Below are positions 30,305-61,995 of a stretch of DNA of 64,000 nucleotides, one piece after another. Under the pieces are notes generated by a model. It did no database searches, was not told the origin of the DNA, and was given only the letters and a program-made list of their open reading frames with translations. The DNA comes from an uncultured Marinoscillum sp. (GTDB lineage: Bacteria; Bacteroidota; Bacteroidia; Cytophagales; MED-G16), in contig CABZXU010000007.1 in the NCBI GenBank assembly GCA_902529805.1, forward strand, positions 877 through 64,876. Direction: 5' to 3'. Numbering within the stretch: the first letter of the stretch is position 1; every line of letters starts with the position of its first letter. The position numbers and the translations under genes were made by a program.

Positions 30305-31975
30305 ATGTGTGGAATATTTGCTTTATTTGATATAAATGATTCTCCTAATGATCTTATGAGAAAAAGATCTTTAGAAATGATCAAGTTAGTAAGACATAGA
30401 GGTCCTGATTGGTCTGGCATTTTCACTTCTCCTAATGCTATCTTAGCTCATGAGAGGTTATGTATTGTAGATATAAATTCAGGAAAACAACCTATAAAAT
30501 CTGAAAGTGAGGATATAATACTTTCAGTAAATGGTGAAATTTATAATCATAAAAACATTAGAAAAAATAAAAATATAAAATACAATTATCTTACTAATTC
30601 TGATTGTGAAGTTATTCTGTCACTATACCAAAATAAAGGTGTTAATTTTTTAAATGACTTGAATGGTATTTTTGCATTTGCTCTTTATGATGCGAAAAAA
30701 AATGAATACTTAATTGCTAGAGATCCTATTGGAGTCATTCCATTATATATTGGTTGGGATGAATATGACAATTTAAATGTTGCATCAGAGATGAAATCTC
30801 TTGTTAAATACTGTAAAAAAATAGAAGAGTTTCCTCCCGGACATTATTATTCAAGTAGAGATAAAAAATATACCAAATACTATAAAAAAGATTGGATGAG
30901 CTATAGTAATATTTCAGAAAATAAAACCTCTATCAGTTCTTTAAAACAAGCTCTTGAACAATCTGTAAAAAATCAGTTGATGTCAGATGTTCCTTTTGGC
31001 GTCCTTCTTTCAGGGGGATTAGACTCATCAATTATTGCTGCACTTGTGAAAAAGTTTTCTAAGAAAAGGATAGAATCTGATGATAAGAAAGATGCTTGGT
31101 GGCCACAAATACATTCTTTTGCAATTGGACTTGAAAACTCTCCTGACCTTGAAGCTTCCAGAGAGGCTGCAAATTATATTGGAACTGTTCACCATGAAAA
31201 AACCTTTACAATTCAAGAAGGTTTCGATGCAATAAGGGATGTGATTTATTTTCTTGAAACCTATGATGTTACAACAGTCAGAGCTTCGACTCCAATGTAT
31301 TTATTAGCAAGAATTATAAAATCTATGGGAATAAAAATGGTATTGTCAGGTGAAGGTGCTGATGAAATTTTTGGAGGATATCTTTATTTTCATAAGGCAC
31401 CAAATGCTAAAGAATTTCATGAAGAAACAGTAAGAAAATTGAATAAGTTACATTTATATGATTGTTTAAGGGCTAATAAATCAATGGCTGCGTGGGGTGT
31501 AGAGTGTAGAGTCCCATTTTTAGATAAAGATTTTCTAGATGTATCTATGGCTATAAACCCAAAAGACAAGATGATTGGATCAGAAAAAATGGAAAAATGG
31601 ATTTTAAGAAAAGCATTTGAAAATGAATTACCAAAAAATATTTTATGGAGACAAAAAGAACAGTTTTCTGATGGAGTAGGATATGGATGGATTGATTTTT
31701 TGAAAGAATATGTTGAATCAAATATATCTGATAAAGAATTTGATATAAGAAATAAAAAGTTTCCTATTAATACACCAAAGACAAAAGAAGAATATTATTA
31801 TAGAAATATCTTTGAGGAGTTTTATAAATCTAAATCTGCTATTAAAACTGTTCCTTCATCAAAATCTGTTGCTTGTAGTACAGAAGAAGCATTATTGTGG
31901 GATAAAGACTTTCAAAATCTTAATGATCCGTCTGGAAGAATTATATCTAATGTTCATAAAAAATCATATTTTTGA
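30305..31975 (+). CDS. asnB: asparagine synthase (glutamine-hydrolysing)
   Basis: MCGIF N-terminal nucleophile, and SGGLDSS pyrophosphatase loop (LLSGGLDSSIIAA); 556 aa. Confidence 0.92.
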   Translation: MCGIFALFDINDSPNDLMRKRSLEMIKLVRHRGPDWSGIFTSPNAILAHERLCIVDINSGKQPIKSESEDIILSVNGEIYNHKNIRKNKNIKYNYLTNSDCEVILSLYQNKGVNFLNDLNGIFAFALYDAKKNEYLIARDPIGVIPLYIGWDEYDNLNVASEMKSLVKYCKKIEEFPPGHYYSSRDKKYTKYYKKDWMSYSNISENKTSISSLKQALEQSVKNQLMSDVPFGVLLSGGLDSSIIAALVKKFSKKRIESDDKKDAWWPQIHSFAIGLENSPDLEASREAANYIGTVHHEKTFTIQEGFDAIRDVIYFLETYDVTTVRASTPMYLLARIIKSMGIKMVLSGEGADEIFGGYLYFHKAPNAKEFHEETVRKLNKLHLYDCLRANKSMAAWGVECRVPFLDKDFLDVSMAINPKDKMIGSEKMEKWILRKAFENELPKNILWRQKEQFSDGVGYGWIDFLKEYVESNISDKEFDIRNKKFPINTPKTKEEYYYRNIFEEFYKSKSAIKTVPSSKSVACSTEEALLWDKDFQNLNDPSGRIISNVHKKSYF

Positions 31976-32057
31976 TCAGTGAAAAATTATTTTGCTTTCT
32001 TATTATTATTTTTTTCTTTTAATTTATTTTCTCAAATATCATTACCAACTTTTCATG
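31939..32057 (+). repeat. direct repeat copy A: last ~37 nt of asnB, its stop, a GTG start and the signal-peptide/leader coding region
   Basis: Aligns by eye at about 85% identity with 32988-33106. Example: cataaaaaatcatatttttgatcagtgaaa versus cgataaaaaattatatttttgatatgtgaaa. The block ttttcttttaatttattttctcaaata is identical, followed by one mismatch (t vs g) and the identical block cattaccaactttt. Confidence 0.7.
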
Positions 32058-32971
32058 CTACCCAAAATCTAAAGTCAGTAGTTAATAATTTTCAAGTAGG
32101 TGATCCTTTAATTGTTGCTGGTGGTGGTGGTGGAGTTATTTATCAAGTTAACCCACATTCAGGAATGCATGCATCTATATCAGAAACTGGAAATAGTGGA
32201 AAAAATGGAACTGCTGGCGGTTCGAACGGCAATGGAGGAAGTTCTACTCGAGGAGGAGGGGGAGGAGGATTTCTGACTGATGGTGGACAGGATTCTAGAA
32301 GACCCGGAACTAAAGGAATAAGTTTTACTAATGGTGGTTTAGGAGGTAATGCGACTGATACAAATACAGGTGATGGAGGATTTGGAGGTGGAGGAGCTTC
32401 AATTCGAGTAAATAATAATATTGGTGATCAAGGTGCTGGAGGAGGAGGAGGTTACTCTGGAGGAGGAGGAGCGGGAGCAAATAATCAAAGTCACGGTGGT
32501 GGAGGTGGATCTTATAATAATGGAGCTAATCAAGTAAATGTGACTCATCCTAATGGAAATGTTGGACATGGAAAAGTTATTATAACTCAAGGTGGTTCGA
32601 CATGGACATTTACTACTTGTGGTGTGTCTGGAAGAACTGGACCCACTCAAAATCAATGTAACTCTTCTTATTCTGGTACTAATTTAACAGGAAATGTTAC
32701 TTTAGTTGATGGAATTCAACATTGGACTATTCCAGCTACTGCAACTTATACTATAAAAGCTTACGGAGCCTCTGGTGGCGATAATGGAAAAGACCCTAAT
32801 TGGAGTAGTTGTCCATATTTTTGTAGAGATGGGGGTCATGGTGCAATTATTCAAGGAGACTTTACTTTAGCTTCTGGTACAGTACTAAAAATACTTGTTG
32901 GTCATCACCCTGAAAATGTTAACTGGCTTAATGGAGGAGGAGGAGGAACCTTTGTAGTGTTATCAAATTAG
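31979..32971 (+). CDS. exported glycine-rich protein, ALK/LTK-type TNF-like/glycine-rich module in circularly permuted order
   Basis: GTG start 3 nt after the asnB stop, then a signal peptide. Residues ~41-203 look like the C-terminal half of the module (LIVAGGGGG ... GGFGGGG ... GGGGGYSGGG ... GHGKVIIT). Residues ~208-330 look like the N-terminal half (WTFTTCGVSGRTGPTQNQCNSSYSGTNL ... GIQHWTIPATATYTIKAYGASGG ... GTVLKILVG ... GGGGGTFVV). Confidence 0.75.
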   Translation: MKNYFAFLLLFFSFNLFSQISLPTFHATQNLKSVVNNFQVGDPLIVAGGGGGVIYQVNPHSGMHASISETGNSGKNGTAGGSNGNGGSSTRGGGGGGFLTDGGQDSRRPGTKGISFTNGGLGGNATDTNTGDGGFGGGGASIRVNNNIGDQGAGGGGGYSGGGGAGANNQSHGGGGGSYNNGANQVNVTHPNGNVGHGKVIITQGGSTWTFTTCGVSGRTGPTQNQCNSSYSGTNLTGNVTLVDGIQHWTIPATATYTIKAYGASGGDNGKDPNWSSCPYFCRDGGHGAIIQGDFTLASGTVLKILVGHHPENVNWLNGGGGGTFVVLSN

Positions 32972-32987
32972 TTATCTGTTATTTTCA

Positions 32988-33106
32988 AATTATATCAAAT
33001 TTCGATAAAAAATTATATTTTTGATATGTGAAACTTTATTTAATTCACTTATTATTATTATTTTCTTTTAATTTATTTTCTCAAATAGCATTACCAACTT
33101 TTTATG
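32988..33106 (+). repeat. direct repeat copy B: non-coding fossil of the asnB 3' end, then a GTG start and leader of the second glycine-rich gene
   Basis: See copy A. It retains an ...aaaaaattatatttttga... remnant of the asnB terminal codons and stop, just upstream of GTG 33028. Confidence 0.7.
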
Positions 33107-34011
33107 GAGCTTTAAGAGTATCAAATCAAAACCAGTTTCAAGGAACTTCTGCTACTTTTACAAATTGCGGTAAAACAGGTAAATTTGGTCCTTCTCAAGG
33201 AGATTGTAATTCTGAATATAGTGGAACAAACTTAGATGGGTTTGTTACCGTTTCTGGTGGTATTCAAGAATGGGAAGTTCCTGTAACCGGAACATACATC
33301 ATTACGGCATATGGAGCTCAAGGGGGTGGTCTTAGTGGGGGTAGTGATAGTGGAGGCAAAGGTGCTAAAATATCTGGAGAATTTAATTTAACTGCAGGAA
33401 CAGTATTAAAAATACTTGTAGGTCAGAAAGGTCTCACTGTTAATAAAGAAGCTTCTGGTGGTGGGGGAACTTTTGTAACTAAAAGTCCACATAATAATAA
33501 TGCTTCTATTCTTGTTGTAGCAGGTGGTGGTGGTGGTTCCTGGAATAACCATACAACTTCTCATGGTCAAGCAGGAGAATCAGGAAATGCTGGGTGTTGT
33601 GGTACTTCAAAAGGTCAAGGAGGATCAAATGGTAATGGAGGAGGTGGACAAGCTACATGTGCTTCAGATGGGGGAGCCGGTTTTTTTACTAATAATAATG
33701 TACTTACACATTGTGGTAATGGTGCTGAAAGAGAAGCTTTTGCATATGTTAATGGTGGAAGAGGTGGTCAAAATTATTGGTGTAGTGGCGCTGTTGGTGG
33801 TTTTGGTGGAGGAGGAGGAACAGCAAGATGTGCAGGTAATACTTATACTGGAGGAGGAGGAGGAGGATATTCAGGAGGAGGAATGGATTATCCTTATCAA
33901 AATGGTACACCAGGAGGAGCTGGAGGAGCTGGATCTAAAAATAATGGTAGCAATGCTACAAATGTCTCTGGGAATAATCCAGGCCATGGAAAAGTAGAAA
34001 TATCATGGTAA
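33028..34011 (+). CDS. exported glycine-rich protein, canonical-order ALK/LTK-type TNF-like + glycine-rich (polyglycine-II) module
   Basis: GTG start and a signal peptide. The ordered motifs are TFTNCGKTGKFGPSQGDCNSEYSGTNL, GIQEWEVPVTGTYIITAYGAQGG, GTVLKILVGQKG, SGGGGTFV, LVVAGGGGGS, GGFGGGGG, GGGGGGYSGGG and GHGKVEISW. Confidence 0.8.
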   Translation: MKLYLIHLLLLFSFNLFSQIALPTFYGALRVSNQNQFQGTSATFTNCGKTGKFGPSQGDCNSEYSGTNLDGFVTVSGGIQEWEVPVTGTYIITAYGAQGGGLSGGSDSGGKGAKISGEFNLTAGTVLKILVGQKGLTVNKEASGGGGTFVTKSPHNNNASILVVAGGGGGSWNNHTTSHGQAGESGNAGCCGTSKGQGGSNGNGGGGQATCASDGGAGFFTNNNVLTHCGNGAEREAFAYVNGGRGGQNYWCSGAVGGFGGGGGTARCAGNTYTGGGGGGYSGGGMDYPYQNGTPGGAGGAGSKNNGSNATNVSGNNPGHGKVEISW

Positions 34012-34018
34012 GAATATA

Positions 34019-36028
34019 TTAATTATTATCAGGTAGTGTGCTATATCTTTTTGCATATTCAATCATTTGTATTGCAAAACTTTCAGGTTGTTCTACTTTA
34101 ATATCTATAATTTCACCTTTATCATCTAATTCAGGAGTGAGAACTGGATTGATAAATCCACTATATGGAGCTGAAGTAAATTTTTCATTTCTTTTAAGGA
34201 TTTCTTTGTGTAGTTCTTGATCTATTTTTACTCCATAATTTTCAATTAAACTTTTTCCTGCTTCATAATCTCCTTCAGATTTAATCCTTTGGATTTCTCT
34301 TAAAAGCTCTCCAAATAAATCTCTTAATTTTTCATAATCGTTAATAACAAAATAAGTTTTATCATTTTCAACTATCTTTTCTATAACATTATCACTAAGT
34401 CCTTTTTCATAAACCCACTTGGAAACAGTTTGTCTATTTCTCATATGTGCTTGTTCTAAATCGTTACCAAGTTTGATTCTAATTAGCTGAGTCATTAACC
34501 CATTTCTTATATAACCATCATAACTTGTCCTACCCATATCTTTTGATGAAGGTGATATTCCGAGCTCTTCCATTTTTTTATCAACTATGAAATATAAGCC
34601 TACAAGATCTGCTCTAGCTTCTTCTAGAGATGATGCATAATTTTTTAATGTTTCTTTAGGTGTTCCAACCCCTTCAACTATTTGTCCACTAGCATGACCT
34701 ATAACTTCATGGAGTGCGGTATGAAGGTTATCTGCGTCTTTTCCATATTTTTTTTCTAATTCAATTTCTTCTTTGCTATATGCAAACTCTTCTAACCTAC
34801 CTGAGCTGCCTGCATTTCCGTAAGCATATAGTATATTTCCAAGGGATATTGACTTTGATCCATGATTTGCTCTAATCCAATTTGCATTAGGTAAATTAAT
34901 TCCAATTGGAGTTGAAGGTGATGCATCACCAGCTTCACCTGCTACGTTTACTGTGTTATAAGAAATACCTACAACATTCTTTTTCTTATGAGCATCCATA
35001 ATCGTTGAATTGTCTTCAAACCATTGAGCTTCACCAGAAATAGCTGACATTTTTTTGCTCATTTCAAAATCCTTTATTTGAACAACAGATTCATATGAGC
35101 CTCTATACCCTTTTGGATCATTATATACCTCTATGAATCCATTTATATAATCAACATCTCCATCTGTAGTTTCCACCCATGCAACATTGTAATCATCCCA
35201 AATTTTTAGATCACCAGTTTCATAATATTTAACAAGTAAATCTAAAGCATCAGCTTGTTTTTTGTTTTCAGCATATTTTTTTGCTAATTCAAGGTTATCA
35301 ATAATTTTTTCTATAGACTCACTATACATACCTCCCTTTTTCCAAACTTTTTCTTTCAAAACGCCATCCTCTTTTACAAGTTTAGAGTTTAATCCAAGTG
35401 ATATGGGTTTATTAGAATCTGGAACTTTAATATTATTATAGAAATTATCAACATCTTCCTCTGTAACATCTGAACCATAAAAATTAACTGAAGATCCGAG
35501 AACAATTCCTTTACTCTTATTTTTATTAACCTTTTTAGAATCAACGTCATTAAATATTAAATCAAATACTTCATCATTTAATTTGGTATTGGTTTCATCC
35601 ATTAAATTTTTTAAATATTCTACAGAAAAATCAGGGTCAAATTTATCATTTGAATAGTGATGATGAATTCCATTAGAAAACCATATTCGTTTTAAATATA
35701 TCTTAAAAGATTCCCATCTTTTATCATTTTTATCACCATTATAGATCAAATAAATATTTTCTAGGGCTCTTCTTATTTTTAAATTGTGCCTGTAATTCTG
35801 ATCATACATTATATCTCTTCCATAAAGTCCAGCTTCAGTCAAATAATAGACGAACTTTTTTTGATTTAAAGTTAATTTATCAAAACCTGGAATTTTATAT
35901 CTTAAAATTTTTAAATCAGAAAATTGCTCTGAAAAATGAGAAAACTCACTTTTTTCTTCTTGACTGATATTACAAGAAAATATTAAAAAAAAGATAACAA
36001 ATGAGAAAACTAATTTTTTTGATTTCAT
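34019..36028 (-). CDS. dipeptidyl-peptidase III-like metallopeptidase (family M49), exported
   Basis: HEVIGH zinc motif and downstream EEARADLVGLY second motif. Signal/lipoprotein N-terminus (FLIFSC); 669 aa. Confidence 0.85.
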   Translation of the reverse strand: MKSKKLVFSFVIFFLIFSCNISQEEKSEFSHFSEQFSDLKILRYKIPGFDKLTLNQKKFVYYLTEAGLYGRDIMYDQNYRHNLKIRRALENIYLIYNGDKNDKRWESFKIYLKRIWFSNGIHHHYSNDKFDPDFSVEYLKNLMDETNTKLNDEVFDLIFNDVDSKKVNKNKSKGIVLGSSVNFYGSDVTEEDVDNFYNNIKVPDSNKPISLGLNSKLVKEDGVLKEKVWKKGGMYSESIEKIIDNLELAKKYAENKKQADALDLLVKYYETGDLKIWDDYNVAWVETTDGDVDYINGFIEVYNDPKGYRGSYESVVQIKDFEMSKKMSAISGEAQWFEDNSTIMDAHKKKNVVGISYNTVNVAGEAGDASPSTPIGINLPNANWIRANHGSKSISLGNILYAYGNAGSSGRLEEFAYSKEEIELEKKYGKDADNLHTALHEVIGHASGQIVEGVGTPKETLKNYASSLEEARADLVGLYFIVDKKMEELGISPSSKDMGRTSYDGYIRNGLMTQLIRIKLGNDLEQAHMRNRQTVSKWVYEKGLSDNVIEKIVENDKTYFVINDYEKLRDLFGELLREIQRIKSEGDYEAGKSLIENYGVKIDQELHKEILKRNEKFTSAPYSGFINPVLTPELDDKGEIIDIKVEQPESFAIQMIEYAKRYSTLPDNN

Positions 36029-36144
36029 AATTTTTTTTTAGCAAATATAATTTTTTTAATCTTTTTTAAGTTTATTATATTTTAAATAAAAAAAATAATT
36101 TGTACATTTATGATTATACAGTATTAACCAAAAATTTAAAAATT

Positions 36145-36540
36145 ATGAAAAATTATTTATTTACAATATTTATTGTAGTGTTTATGGCAAGTAGTTGTAC
36201 AGTTACTCGTCAATTTTATGAATTTCAACATCATGGAACAACTTCAATTAAGACAGATTCTGATTATAAATATGTTGCAAGAAATGTTATGGGTAAAGCT
36301 AAAACAACAATTAAATTAAGTGCATGGAAAAAAATGAAACAAAGTGTTGTTTCAGATGGGATGTTAGCTGATGCGAAAAGAGAGTTACCAGCTCTAAAAG
36401 ATAATCAGGCTTTTGCTAATTTATCAATTGATGTTCTTAGAACTGAAACAGGTTCTGCTGCTGGTGCTAGTGGTATAAGTATTAAGGAAATTGTAATTGA
36501 AGTTATTGTTAGTGCAGATATTATAGAGTATACAAACTAA
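36145..36540 (+). CDS. hypothetical lipoprotein
   Basis: Start moved to MKNYLFTIFIVVFMASSC (lipobox). 131 aa, no family recognised. Confidence 0.5.
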   Translation: MKNYLFTIFIVVFMASSCTVTRQFYEFQHHGTTSIKTDSDYKYVARNVMGKAKTTIKLSAWKKMKQSVVSDGMLADAKRELPALKDNQAFANLSIDVLRTETGSAAGASGISIKEIVIEVIVSADIIEYTN

Positions 36541-36574
36541 TCATATATACCATTTTTTATTATTAAAATCCAAT

Positions 36575-37201
36575 ATGATTAAATATCTGTTAGAATTATT
36601 CCTTTCTCTATTTTTTTTACATATTAGTTTTATTTCTTTTTCTCAAATTAAAGTAGTTGAACGCTCACACACAAATGTATCTTTAGTTGGAAAGATAAGT
36701 CATACTGCAGCTTTTCAAACTGGTGGTCTTTCAAGAAAATTACCTACTGCTGATGCCTTAAAAGTAATTATTGATGAAGATATAGATGCATATAAACATG
36801 AAAACTATACCAACAATTTAAGAAAAGAGGCAAATGATACTTATAAATCTGTAGGTGTTAGAGGTATGGCTTGGGCTGCTGGTGAAGAGTTTTCAGCAAG
36901 TTTATTACATTTCAAGGATAGAGATAAATTTTTACTAAGCTTTCAGAATAGCTCATATAATTATCAAATGGAAAGTTTTTGGCTATCTGAACAAACTAAA
37001 ATGGATTTACATGAACTAATTAAGGGAGAATTAGAAGAGAAAATTAAATTTAAGCAAATCGAGGTAATATTAGATAATAATATTGTATTAGTACTTTCCA
37101 TTAATAAAAAGAAGGTGAGTTTAAATTTTTGGGATGGATATAATTGGGTTCAAAGTTATTGGTATAGACTTTTTAAGATAAACAATCTATTTGGTGAATA
37201 G
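36575..37201 (+). CDS. hypothetical exported protein
   Basis: Signal peptide ending ISFSQ. 208 aa, no family recognised. Confidence 0.5.
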   Translation: MIKYLLELFLSLFFLHISFISFSQIKVVERSHTNVSLVGKISHTAAFQTGGLSRKLPTADALKVIIDEDIDAYKHENYTNNLRKEANDTYKSVGVRGMAWAAGEEFSASLLHFKDRDKFLLSFQNSSYNYQMESFWLSEQTKMDLHELIKGELEEKIKFKQIEVILDNNIVLVLSINKKKVSLNFWDGYNWVQSYWYRLFKINNLFGE

Positions 37202-37268
37202 AATAAAATATTGCTTTAAAAAACTTCATATTTAAATCTACAAACATCTAAAAAAATAAGTTGAATTA

Positions 37269-60804: not shown

Positions 60805-61995
60805 CTACAGACCATTATTTTGTGTTACCCCTATACAATAATATCCATCATTTAGGTTAACACTTGAAAACACAACATTATCGCTATTGATTATGTTGTT
60901 AGCAGTTCTCACGATAGAAAAATCTCCTGAAGTATTAGATCTATATAATAATTTGTAATGTGTTACTGGGTTTACTGTTAATAAATTATTTCCTGTAACA
61001 TCTCTAATATCAAATATCATTGTTGTTGAATTGACCGCACCAGTTTCATCGGTATTCCAAATTCTTTTTGATCGTCTAACTACTCCAGCAGGAAGATCAG
61101 AAGTAGAAGAGCTAGATAGATTGTTATTTCCAAAAACAACAAAGTTTTCTTCTGCCAAAATACTTGATACACTCATAGTCAATCCATTTGAAGGTTGAGA
61201 AGCATTTGTTCCTGTCATCCTCCACAACCCTTCAATATCTGTTTCATAATCATCATTTAAGAAACCTATTGGAACGTATGAATCTACCCAATCATTGCTG
61301 TTCATTCCACCTGTCATCGATCCATTTTTTGAATTAGTACTATTATCTGTTAGTGTAGTTCCTGAACCATTACTCATTTTATAATATGCTTTGAGATTAC
61401 TTTCATTACCTTCTAATTCTTTGAACATATTCGATTTTATTTCTGTTGCAGTTCTTGCATCATTCCAAATTCTCAGTTCATCAATTTTCCCATCTATAGT
61501 AAGGCTTCCATTAGCTTTACCAATATACTTCCAATATAATTTTGCATTTGAAAGATTTTTTGTTCCTTTAGATGCTCCATTTACAAACAATTCAACATTG
61601 TTATTTTTACCAACCCATACAACATGCTCCCACTTACCAATTGATGTAATATAATTCCATTTCCAATCGGTATTTCCAAATTTTGTGATGCCAAGTTTAT
61701 GAGTATTATTCCACTGCTCTAGTTTTAGAGCCCAACATCCTGAACCACATCTCCAAAGAAGATTAGCTCCATTATTATTTGATGCTCTTTCATACCAAAC
61801 TTCTACAGTCCATGGAGGGTTCAAATCTGAACCATTGATTTGAATATTATCTCCATTTCCATCAAATTCTAGAGCATAATTAACAAATGGAATTGGCGGA
61901 TCGGGTTTTTGTATTCCATGAAATGTTGGAAGAGAAATTTGAGATAACAGATTATTGAATGTTAATAAAAATAAAAATATAATATAATATTTCAT
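60805..61995 (-). CDS. exported LamG/concanavalin-A-like (Laminin_G_3) domain protein sharing the QISLPTFHG leader
   Basis: Signal peptide. ALEFDGNGDNIQI ... GKIDELRIWNDARTATEI is typical of LamG-type lectin folds. The C-terminal ~170 aa are unassigned. Confidence 0.7.
   Translation of the reverse strand: MKYYIIFLFLLTFNNLLSQISLPTFHGIQKPDPPIPFVNYALEFDGNGDNIQINGSDLNPPWTVEVWYERASNNNGANLLWRCGSGCWALKLEQWNNTHKLGITKFGNTDWKWNYITSIGKWEHVVWVGKNNNVELFVNGASKGTKNLSNAKLYWKYIGKANGSLTIDGKIDELRIWNDARTATEIKSNMFKELEGNESNLKAYYKMSNGSGTTLTDNSTNSKNGSMTGGMNSNDWVDSYVPIGFLNDDYETDIEGLWRMTGTNASQPSNGLTMSVSSILAEENFVVFGNNNLSSSSTSDLPAGVVRRSKRIWNTDETGAVNSTTMIFDIRDVTGNNLLTVNPVTHYKLLYRSNTSGDFSIVRTANNIINSDNVVFSSVNLNDGYYCIGVTQNNGL

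Follow-up and report, generated by a model that had tools for sequence, protein, structure and literature searches.

Natural circular permutants produced by duplication and truncation are classically exemplified by swaposin/saposin, the C2-domain topologies I and II, DNA methyltransferases and the relatives of legume lectins. The glycine-rich domain family of ALK and LTK (Pfam PF12810, ALK_LTK_GRD) has a canonical colinear order, in which a TNF-like N-terminal segment is followed by the Gly-rich part and the final strands, and the complete domain would consist of a TNF-like β-sandwich plus a Gly-rich lattice. Glycine-rich tips are also found in phages, such as S16 gp38 and Pam3 gp24, the latter combining TNF-like and glycine-rich parts in an arrangement resembling the ALK ectodomain, and in these polyglycine receptor-binding tips conserved Gly motifs scaffold hypervariable loops (PMC9608196). 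A literature search returned no report of circular permutation in the ALK/LTK glycine-rich family and nothing relevant on PF12810 in bacteria. Here we analyze a gene, named P1 (31979..32971, + strand, GTG start, 330 amino acids), located in a 64,000-nucleotide stretch of DNA from an uncultured Marinoscillum sp. (contig CABZXU010000007.1; this whole stretch is called the window) and followed by a co-oriented neighbour, P2 (33028..34011, +, 327 amino acids). The architecture of P2 is leader, N-module and C-module, whereas that of P1 is leader, C-module and N-module, so the canonical colinear order is not followed by P1. We consider it very probable that P1 encodes a functional natural circular permutant of a bacterial ALK/LTK-type glycine-rich family, built in the way described below.

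A first-pass annotation of this DNA had claimed that P1 carries the C-half and then the N-half of the P2 module behind a shared leader, and the alignments bear this out. By BLASTP, residues 39-153 of P2 match residues 206-329 of P1 at 52% identity, and a weaker match joins P2 162-268 to P1 44-144. Measured against 500 composition-preserving shuffles, the N-modules (P1 206-330 and P2 39-160) gave a score of 306 (z = 43, 52% identity), and the C-modules (P1 41-205 and P2 161-327) a Smith-Waterman score of 278, compared with 124 ± 11 for the shuffles (z = 13.5), so that the match exceeds mere similarity between glycine runs. In fact, the C-module match runs from end to end, and its landmarks LxVAGGGGG, GGSNGNGG, GGFGGGG, GGGGGYSGGG and GHGKVxI are colinear in both proteins. 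The same-order controls (N against N-position and C against C-position in P1 and P2) remained at z below 2. When mature P2 was doubled head-to-tail, as the same annotation had proposed, P1 44-329 aligned to it as one colinear block with 47% identity over 303 columns, and the leaders (P1 1-39 and P2 1-38) share around 51% identity. The PF12810 profile tells which of the two proteins is the permuted one: profile positions 7-240 correspond to P2 87-325, and positions 7-72 to P1 254-321, so that P2 has the order of the family and P1 is the permutant. P1 scores 29.0 bits with this profile, above the gathering cut-off of 24.5, through residues 254-321 only, and P2 stays under the cut-off with 17.6 bits, yet spans profile positions 7-240. 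P2 also matches ALK/LTK ectodomain chains of the PDB with E values from 1e-14 to 4e-12.

P2 had been taken as the reference relative of P1, but it is not the closest unpermuted protein. Two proteins of canonical order from marine metagenomes, P0005 (324 amino acids) and P0010 (320 amino acids), are much closer (numbers of this kind designate database proteins, and those beginning with L designate loci). P1 43-330 aligns colinearly to doubled P0005 over 288 columns, with 77% identity and two small gaps, and to doubled P0010 with 73%; the P1-specific insert GGDNGKD..W.SCP.FCRDGG lies within the matched part. Both have the normal N-C order, end in ...GHGK(I/L)EISW and carry a leader of the same family as that of P1. 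The derivation of P1 from its neighbour P2 was consequently rejected, as P2 is a different paralogue (47%) and the sisters P0005 and P0010 are encoded elsewhere. By module, P1 is around 81% identical to P0005 in the C-module, which comprises the Gly-rich part and the last β-strands of the canonical domain and is matched by the module hidden Markov model (HMM) at residues 44-204, and 76% identical in the N-module, which is the TNF-like N-terminal part.

The comparison with P0005 allows the three break points to be located. Between leader and C-module, P1 reads ...NNFQ-VGD-PLIVAGGGGG, against ...TFVVLSDNT-PLIIGGGGGG in P0005. Between the two modules, P1 reads ...GHGKVIIT-QGGS-TWTFT, where P0005 ends in ...GHGKIEISW and starts with ...FQGNS-ATFT, in such a way that a linker of 4-6 residues connects the old termini. 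This linker retains the QG.S found ahead of the N-module in the P0005 leader (FQGNSATFT), aligns to W/GNS of doubled P0005 and has the form [QK]G[GA][SLT] in each of the nine database homologues of P1. The third break is the stop codon of P1, inside the hairpin loop TFVVLS-DNT-PLII and 2-3 residues ahead of PLII in P0005; all nine homologues end in ...TFV(VLS/IK)N, whereas canonical P0005 runs on as ...TFVVLSDNTPLIIGGGGGG. The earlier placement of this stop exactly where P2 continues into LVVAGGGGG has to be corrected, since P1 ends with ...GGGGGTFVVLSN in the loop, around 9 residues earlier.

The conservation of P1 was studied by searching 5.8 billion proteins. Nine full-length homologues of C-then-N order were found (P0001-P0004, P0006-P0009 and P0011), with identities of 64-96%, in ENA, TARA and NCBI assemblies that are independent of one another. 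A 95% identical copy is present in the single-cell genome AH-324-A18 (L006; labelled 'uncultured Marinoscillum sp.'), and a scan of the genome collection matched no other genome. When module HMMs were applied to 120 database hits and to 5 sequences of the window or loci, 103 N-C proteins, 6 multi-module proteins (N-C-N or C-N-C) and 11 C-N proteins were recognised, all of the latter being P1 homologues, with the window and L006 copies counted in. The window copy and the nine homologues have in common both the junction GHGKVIIT-[QK]G[GA][SLT]-TWTFT and the stop after ...GGGGGTFV(VLS/IK)N. The Gly motifs xxAGGGGG, GGxGGGG, GGFGGGG, GGGGGYSGGG and GGGGGS are invariant in the ten sequences of the P1 alignment and align to those of P2 and P0005. 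Pairwise dN/dS (ratio of nonsynonymous to synonymous divergence; Nei-Gojobori method, NG86), read from pairs with enough substitutions to be informative, was 0.07-0.45 in each half of P1 (0.07-0.37 in the C-module), compared with 0.15-0.32 for canonical P2 and the P0005/P0010 pair and 0.04 for asnB.

The structure of P1 alone, another check proposed in the first-pass annotation, was predicted with AlphaFold2 (AF2). With a permutant-only alignment of ten natural P1-type sequences, the mean predicted local distance difference test score (pLDDT) was 48, with the N-module and the junction hairpin resolved and the Gly-rich part not (pLDDT about 25). A deeper alignment, also restricted to natural sequences, had 68 canonical proteins aligned by MAFFT through the C-module columns, and permutants plus natural multi-module proteins in the N-module columns; an alignment of P1 with separate N- and C-fragments was left unused because MAFFT spread the C-fragments over the whole protein. 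From the deeper alignment one compact domain is predicted, with a mean pLDDT of 85.8 (84-86 in all five models), a predicted template modelling score (pTM) of 0.83 and low confidence confined to the linker (residues 18-33) and an insert loop. The P1 junction is spanned by a hairpin of strands 199-204 and 207-211, present in the permutant-only model too, and the 10-residue blocks over residues 191-210 have mean pLDDT values of 92 and 97. The C-module, with pLDDT of about 91-96, contributes strands 44-47, 183-188 and 199-204, which accompany those of the N-module, and the terminal strands of the domain are 44-47 and 324-328. This model fits a β-sandwich to which segments flanking the Gly-rich part on either side contribute, and would agree with the earlier proposal that the TNF-like part is assembled in this manner and that the permuted order can fold. 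The Gly-rich part shows high pLDDT and no helix or strand assigned by DSSP, and would be compatible with a polyglycine-II (PGII) lattice. In a Foldseek search with the P1 model, ALK was the sole credible PDB match (7nx3_F, 7mzy_A and 7ls0_C; prob 1.0), with root-mean-square deviations of 2.4-3.9 Å over 110-120 columns.

The interval between asnB and the gene of an M49 peptidase is a variable cassette site among genomes that are around 90% identical in DNA. The order asnB-P1-P2-M49 is found in the window, L005 and L007; P1 stands there without P2 in L006, L013 and L014, whose nucleotide alignment to the window skips 32974..34017; and in L010 a different canonical paralogue is followed by P1 and then by M49. 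The loci in which P1 lies alone between asnB and M49 demonstrate that P2 is dispensable for P1 in cis. The flank proteins are 92-98% identical (asnB 92-98% in L005, L006, L007, L013 and L014; M49 93-97% in the same loci and L010), compared with 64%-96% for the P1 alleles. The synonymous divergence (dS) between the window and L010 is 1.10 in the C-module and 0.023 in the N-module, and the opposite pattern is seen between L010 and L014 (0.007 and 0.43, respectively); between the window and L005 it is 0.06-0.08 for P1, 0.15 for P2 and 0.44 for asnB. These contrasting values indicate that alleles were recently exchanged between lineages and that recombination took place at the module junction or close to it; P1 alleles are mosaics, and the two halves recombine independently. 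A second subgroup of permutants (P0006, P0007, P0008 and P0011), with the local leader type QILPSxHGVHxKK in place of the P1 leader motif, is found at an OsmC...ValRS locus, where another genome has canonical P0010 at the permutants' position.

With these data, the explanations that deny P1 a function of its own can be weighed. It is hardly conceivable that the permuted order was created by misassembly or wrong gene calling: the order is unusual and Gly-rich repeats can confuse assemblers, but the same architecture, with flanks arranged alike, is present in TARA and ENA metagenomes, in an NCBI assembly and in the single-cell genome, and the homologues represent clusters of 89, 63, 59 and 47 member sequences. 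The idea that P1 is a decaying remnant, or a pseudogene fragment left by the rearrangement of a canonical gene, already considered in the first-pass annotation, draws on the non-canonical domain order and on the Pfam match, which covers only a third of P1. We find it very improbable, because the reading frame is intact in the window, in the nine homologues and in the single-cell copy, the dN/dS values are low in both halves, the Gly motifs are invariant and a compact domain is predicted. P1 is therefore an intact, conserved gene under purifying selection, as the dN/dS check proposed for both halves was meant to reveal, and neither an artefact nor a decaying fragment. A third possibility, raised at the same time, is that P1 folds or works only with P2, through heterodimerisation or complementation, and in its favour the genes are adjacent and co-oriented and have the leader in common in the window, L005 and L007, and a paralogue could be encoded elsewhere in the genomes of L006, L013 and L014. 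The solitary copies at these three loci weaken this proposal, as does L010, where P1 adjoins a different paralogue; moreover, P1 has the complete set of domain segments, and the AF2 domain is self-contained, all of which makes a dependence on P2 improbable.

In search of tandem relatives, the junction segment (P1 133-267) was compared with 1.84 billion representatives, and 2148 hits were obtained at E ≤ 0.001. The best 150 of these included 134 previously unseen proteins, with 34 of the NC, 28 of the NCNC, 9 of the NCN and 4 of the NCNCNC type. Tandem N-C-N-C proteins are thus abundant in the family, and the C-to-N linkers of multi-module proteins are 5 to about 25 residues long. The anatomy of the break points in P1 is as expected from an N-C-N-C protein that lost its first N and last C, so that a permutation of the kind produced by duplication and truncation, which the first-pass annotation had put forward, is supported by the QG.S linker, the opened hairpin loop and these abundant relatives. 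The same search also revealed giant proteins of 2000-5484 amino acids (P0121-P0153) with up to 11 matched glycine-rich-domain stretches, for instance NCNCNCNCN. P0160, tried as a further permutant, was rejected as a fragment of a multi-module protein.

A second C-N architecture, represented by three conserved clusters, was found in P0201 (522 amino acids) and its relatives P0255 (73%) and P0256 (65%). In P0201, a leader of the same family is followed by YCF48/BNR-like propeller repeats, the C-N unit and one further propeller repeat; a YCF48-like propeller is here interrupted by a permuted glycine-rich domain. The unit is opened at the same hairpin as P1 (TPLIIAGGGGG...GEVIIS-GNGT-TYTFTNC...GGGGTFVAKGNTHG). 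Its modules are nearest to a canonical paralogue encoded at L009 4467..5423 (71% for N and 58% for C, against 45% and 45% with P1), and its GNGT junction resembles the residues that precede the N-module of that paralogue, which suggests that the permutation of P0201 may be independent of that of P1. The junction of P0256 is P1-like, in a mosaic, and gene conversion may be an alternative explanation for this family. These proteins also speak for a different history of P1, in which the C-N unit was acquired ready-made, from the middle of a multi-module protein or from a P0201-like one, and was then gene-converted piecemeal, or in which the permutation arose more than once. Recombination at the level of modules and the nesting of canonical sisters among the permutants point in the same direction. 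Such a history seems rather unlikely to us, as a single junction, with the QG.S of a P0005-type leader, is present in all P1-type alleles, and the search brought up no multi-module donor with an identity above 55%.

Several observations weigh against a functional permutant with a single tandem origin, or at least against parts of that account. The search for the two-module intermediate gave a divided answer: the N-C-N-C architecture is common, as anticipated, but no close intermediate appeared, the best multi-module relatives being only about 50-55% identical to P1. Neighbour-joining (NJ) bootstrap trees, built per module on 34-taxon subsets, placed canonical P0005 and P0010 among the permutants, with monophyly of the permutants recovered in 18 of 100 replicates for the N-module and 2 of 100 for the C-module. 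The history of the permutants is either reticulate or left undecided by these trees; we read it as a probable single origin followed by recombination, because all P1-type alleles share the junction. Regarding the structure, Foldseek covers only the N-module, with a TM score of about 0.3, because this aligner is sequential and P1 is permuted, and the confident AF2 model uses canonical homologues in the C-module columns, in such a way that it would not be fully independent of the canonical fold. Finally, neither a lipobox nor the C-terminal domain of the type IX secretion system (Por_Secre_tail, PF18962) accounts for the final location of P1; this domain is absent from P1 and P2, P1 ending within its own domain, and present in some relatives, such as P0012.

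In the functional permutant that we favour, the chain would begin with a Sec signal peptide, continue as a flexible linker of around 24 residues and enter the domain at what is an internal hairpin loop of the canonical protein. It would then run through the Gly-rich part and the last strands of the sandwich, cross the 4-residue linker to the former first strand and end on the other side of the opened hairpin, so that the same three-dimensional domain would be produced from a re-ordered chain. The permutant would go back to a tandem N-C-N-C stage from which the leading N and the trailing C were lost, leaving a junction inherited by all P1-type alleles, and it would be set in a recombination-prone site between asnB and M49, in which whole genes and half-genes would be swapped between strains.

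The allelic variation of P1 is concentrated in loops between the invariant Gly runs. From this distribution and the likeness to the phage tips we infer that P1 could be an exported and diversifying binding module, in which the conserved Gly motifs would scaffold hypervariable loops. The leader motif FSQI[SA]LPTF[HY] is common to P1 (32036..32107, +), P2 (33085..33150, +; its counterpart there is QIALPTFYGALRVSNQNQFQ) and a LamG_3 protein encoded at 60805..61995 (-), 28 kb from P1 and unrelated to it apart from the leader. In related loci, SPRY, LamG_3 and YCF48-like propeller proteins also carry leaders of this family, which might act as a shared signal for sorting or anchoring, or as a handle for recombination.

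Table 1. Coordinates of the parts of P1 and of its surroundings in the window.
Feature	Position	Strand	Sequence or residues	Description
P1 signal peptide	31979..32035	+	MKNYFAFLLLFFSFNLFS/Q	Hydrophobic N-terminus; AF2 helix at residues 4-17; most variable part among alleles
P1 conserved leader/linker	32036..32107	+	QISLPTFHATQNLKSVVNNFQVGD	Ends at the start of the C-module; pLDDT below 50 at residues 18-33
P1 C-module	32108..32590	+	Residues 44-204; LIVAGGGGG...GGFGGGG...GGGGGYSGGG...GHGKVIIT	
Junction linker	32591..32602	+	QGGS	Fuses the former C-terminus to the former N-terminus
P1 N-module	32603..32968	+	Residues 209-330; TWTFTTCG...GIQHWTIP...VLKILVG...GGGGGTFVVLSN	
P1 stop codon	32969..32971	+		Sits in the former hairpin loop
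P2 cassette	32974..34017	+		54-nt spacer plus gene of canonical order (33028..34011)
asnB	30305..31975	+		Conserved upstream flank
Peptidase M49 gene	34019..36028	-		Conserved downstream flank, convergent to P1 and P2

As P1 starts 4 nt past the stop of asnB (Table 1), both genes are probably co-transcribed. A scan for promoters and terminators gave promoter-like counts within chance and terminator-like counts slightly above it, with no interpretable site. The G+C content of the window is around 27%, with a local peak of 38.5% due to Gly codons. This peak, at 32-34 kb, and the spurious long open reading frames (ORFs) within P1 and P2 have a common cause in the GGN-rich coding sequence; the ORFs 32399..32656 (-) and 33524..33997 (+) were discarded as antisense or off-frame by-products and not genes.

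Other observations were made on the variable sites. The P2 gene and its 54-nt upstream spacer constitute a presence/absence polymorphism between otherwise around 90% identical genomes, and similar short AT-rich strings, TTAGTTATC and TTAATTATTATC, are located one at each border of this cassette. A second small variable island lies beside M49: the segment ~36070..37249 (ORFs 36100..36540 and 36575..37201) finds no counterpart at the nucleotide level in L005 or L006, its flanks align at around 90%, and L005 carries a different gene, of 224 amino acids, at this site. Arrays of two to four secreted genes sharing the leader were detected in related genomes at L001 3046..6975, L008 369..2612 and L009 3493..5423; these arrays, at Cpn10...aminotransferase and OsmC...ValRS, include LamG_3, SPRY and several paralogues with the glycine-rich domain, a family that behaves as movable cassettes.

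As a tentative possibility, permutation could have been exploited, perhaps repeatedly, to make a self-contained C-N cassette with both ends in one hairpin, suited to the modular shuffling of exported binders. If so, such a cassette could be placed behind interchangeable leaders, as in P1, or inside the loop of another domain, as in P0201, P0255 and P0256, and together with leader swapping and half-gene recombination it would diversify exported binding proteins in streamlined marine Bacteroidota. At the level of the site, uncultured low-GC marine Bacteroidota would diversify exported proteins through cassette presence/absence, leader exchange and half-gene recombination. P1 and P0005, at 77% identity, are a natural matched pair in which the ALK/LTK fold would be made from differently ordered chains, and could serve to test the folding of the lattice and its tolerance to a change in chain connectivity. 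Colinear searches (Pfam and Foldseek) cover a third of such proteins, so that permuted members are under-annotated.

No new kind of system emerges from P1. Circular permutation and this domain family are both known, and what appears to be new, judging from the literature search, is permutation within the family. Compared with ALK/LTK (PF12810; structures 7mzw, 7nwz, 7ls0, 7nx0, 7nx3 and 7mzy), P1 and P2 belong to the same sequence family and have the Gly motifs, and the predicted N-module of P1 superposes on ALK at 2.4-3.0 Å (7nx3_F and 7mzy_A); unlike them, P1 has its segments circularly permuted and is a small protein secreted by a bacterium, in which EGF-like, transmembrane and kinase parts are lacking. 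Phage glycine-rich-domain proteins were weak structural matches, and, as in the phage tips, the variation of P1 sits between invariant Gly runs; by contrast, P1 is chromosomal and secreted, with a signal peptide and no tail fibre part, and its surroundings contain no trimerisation helices and no chaperone gene. As in the classic permutants, a short linker joins the old termini, the new ends fall in a loop at the surface and tandem relatives exist, whereas P1 differs from them in having a 77% identical unpermuted sister and many alleles, in the putative polyglycine lattice of its fold, and in that the permuted unit is also found as a domain insertion, in P0201.

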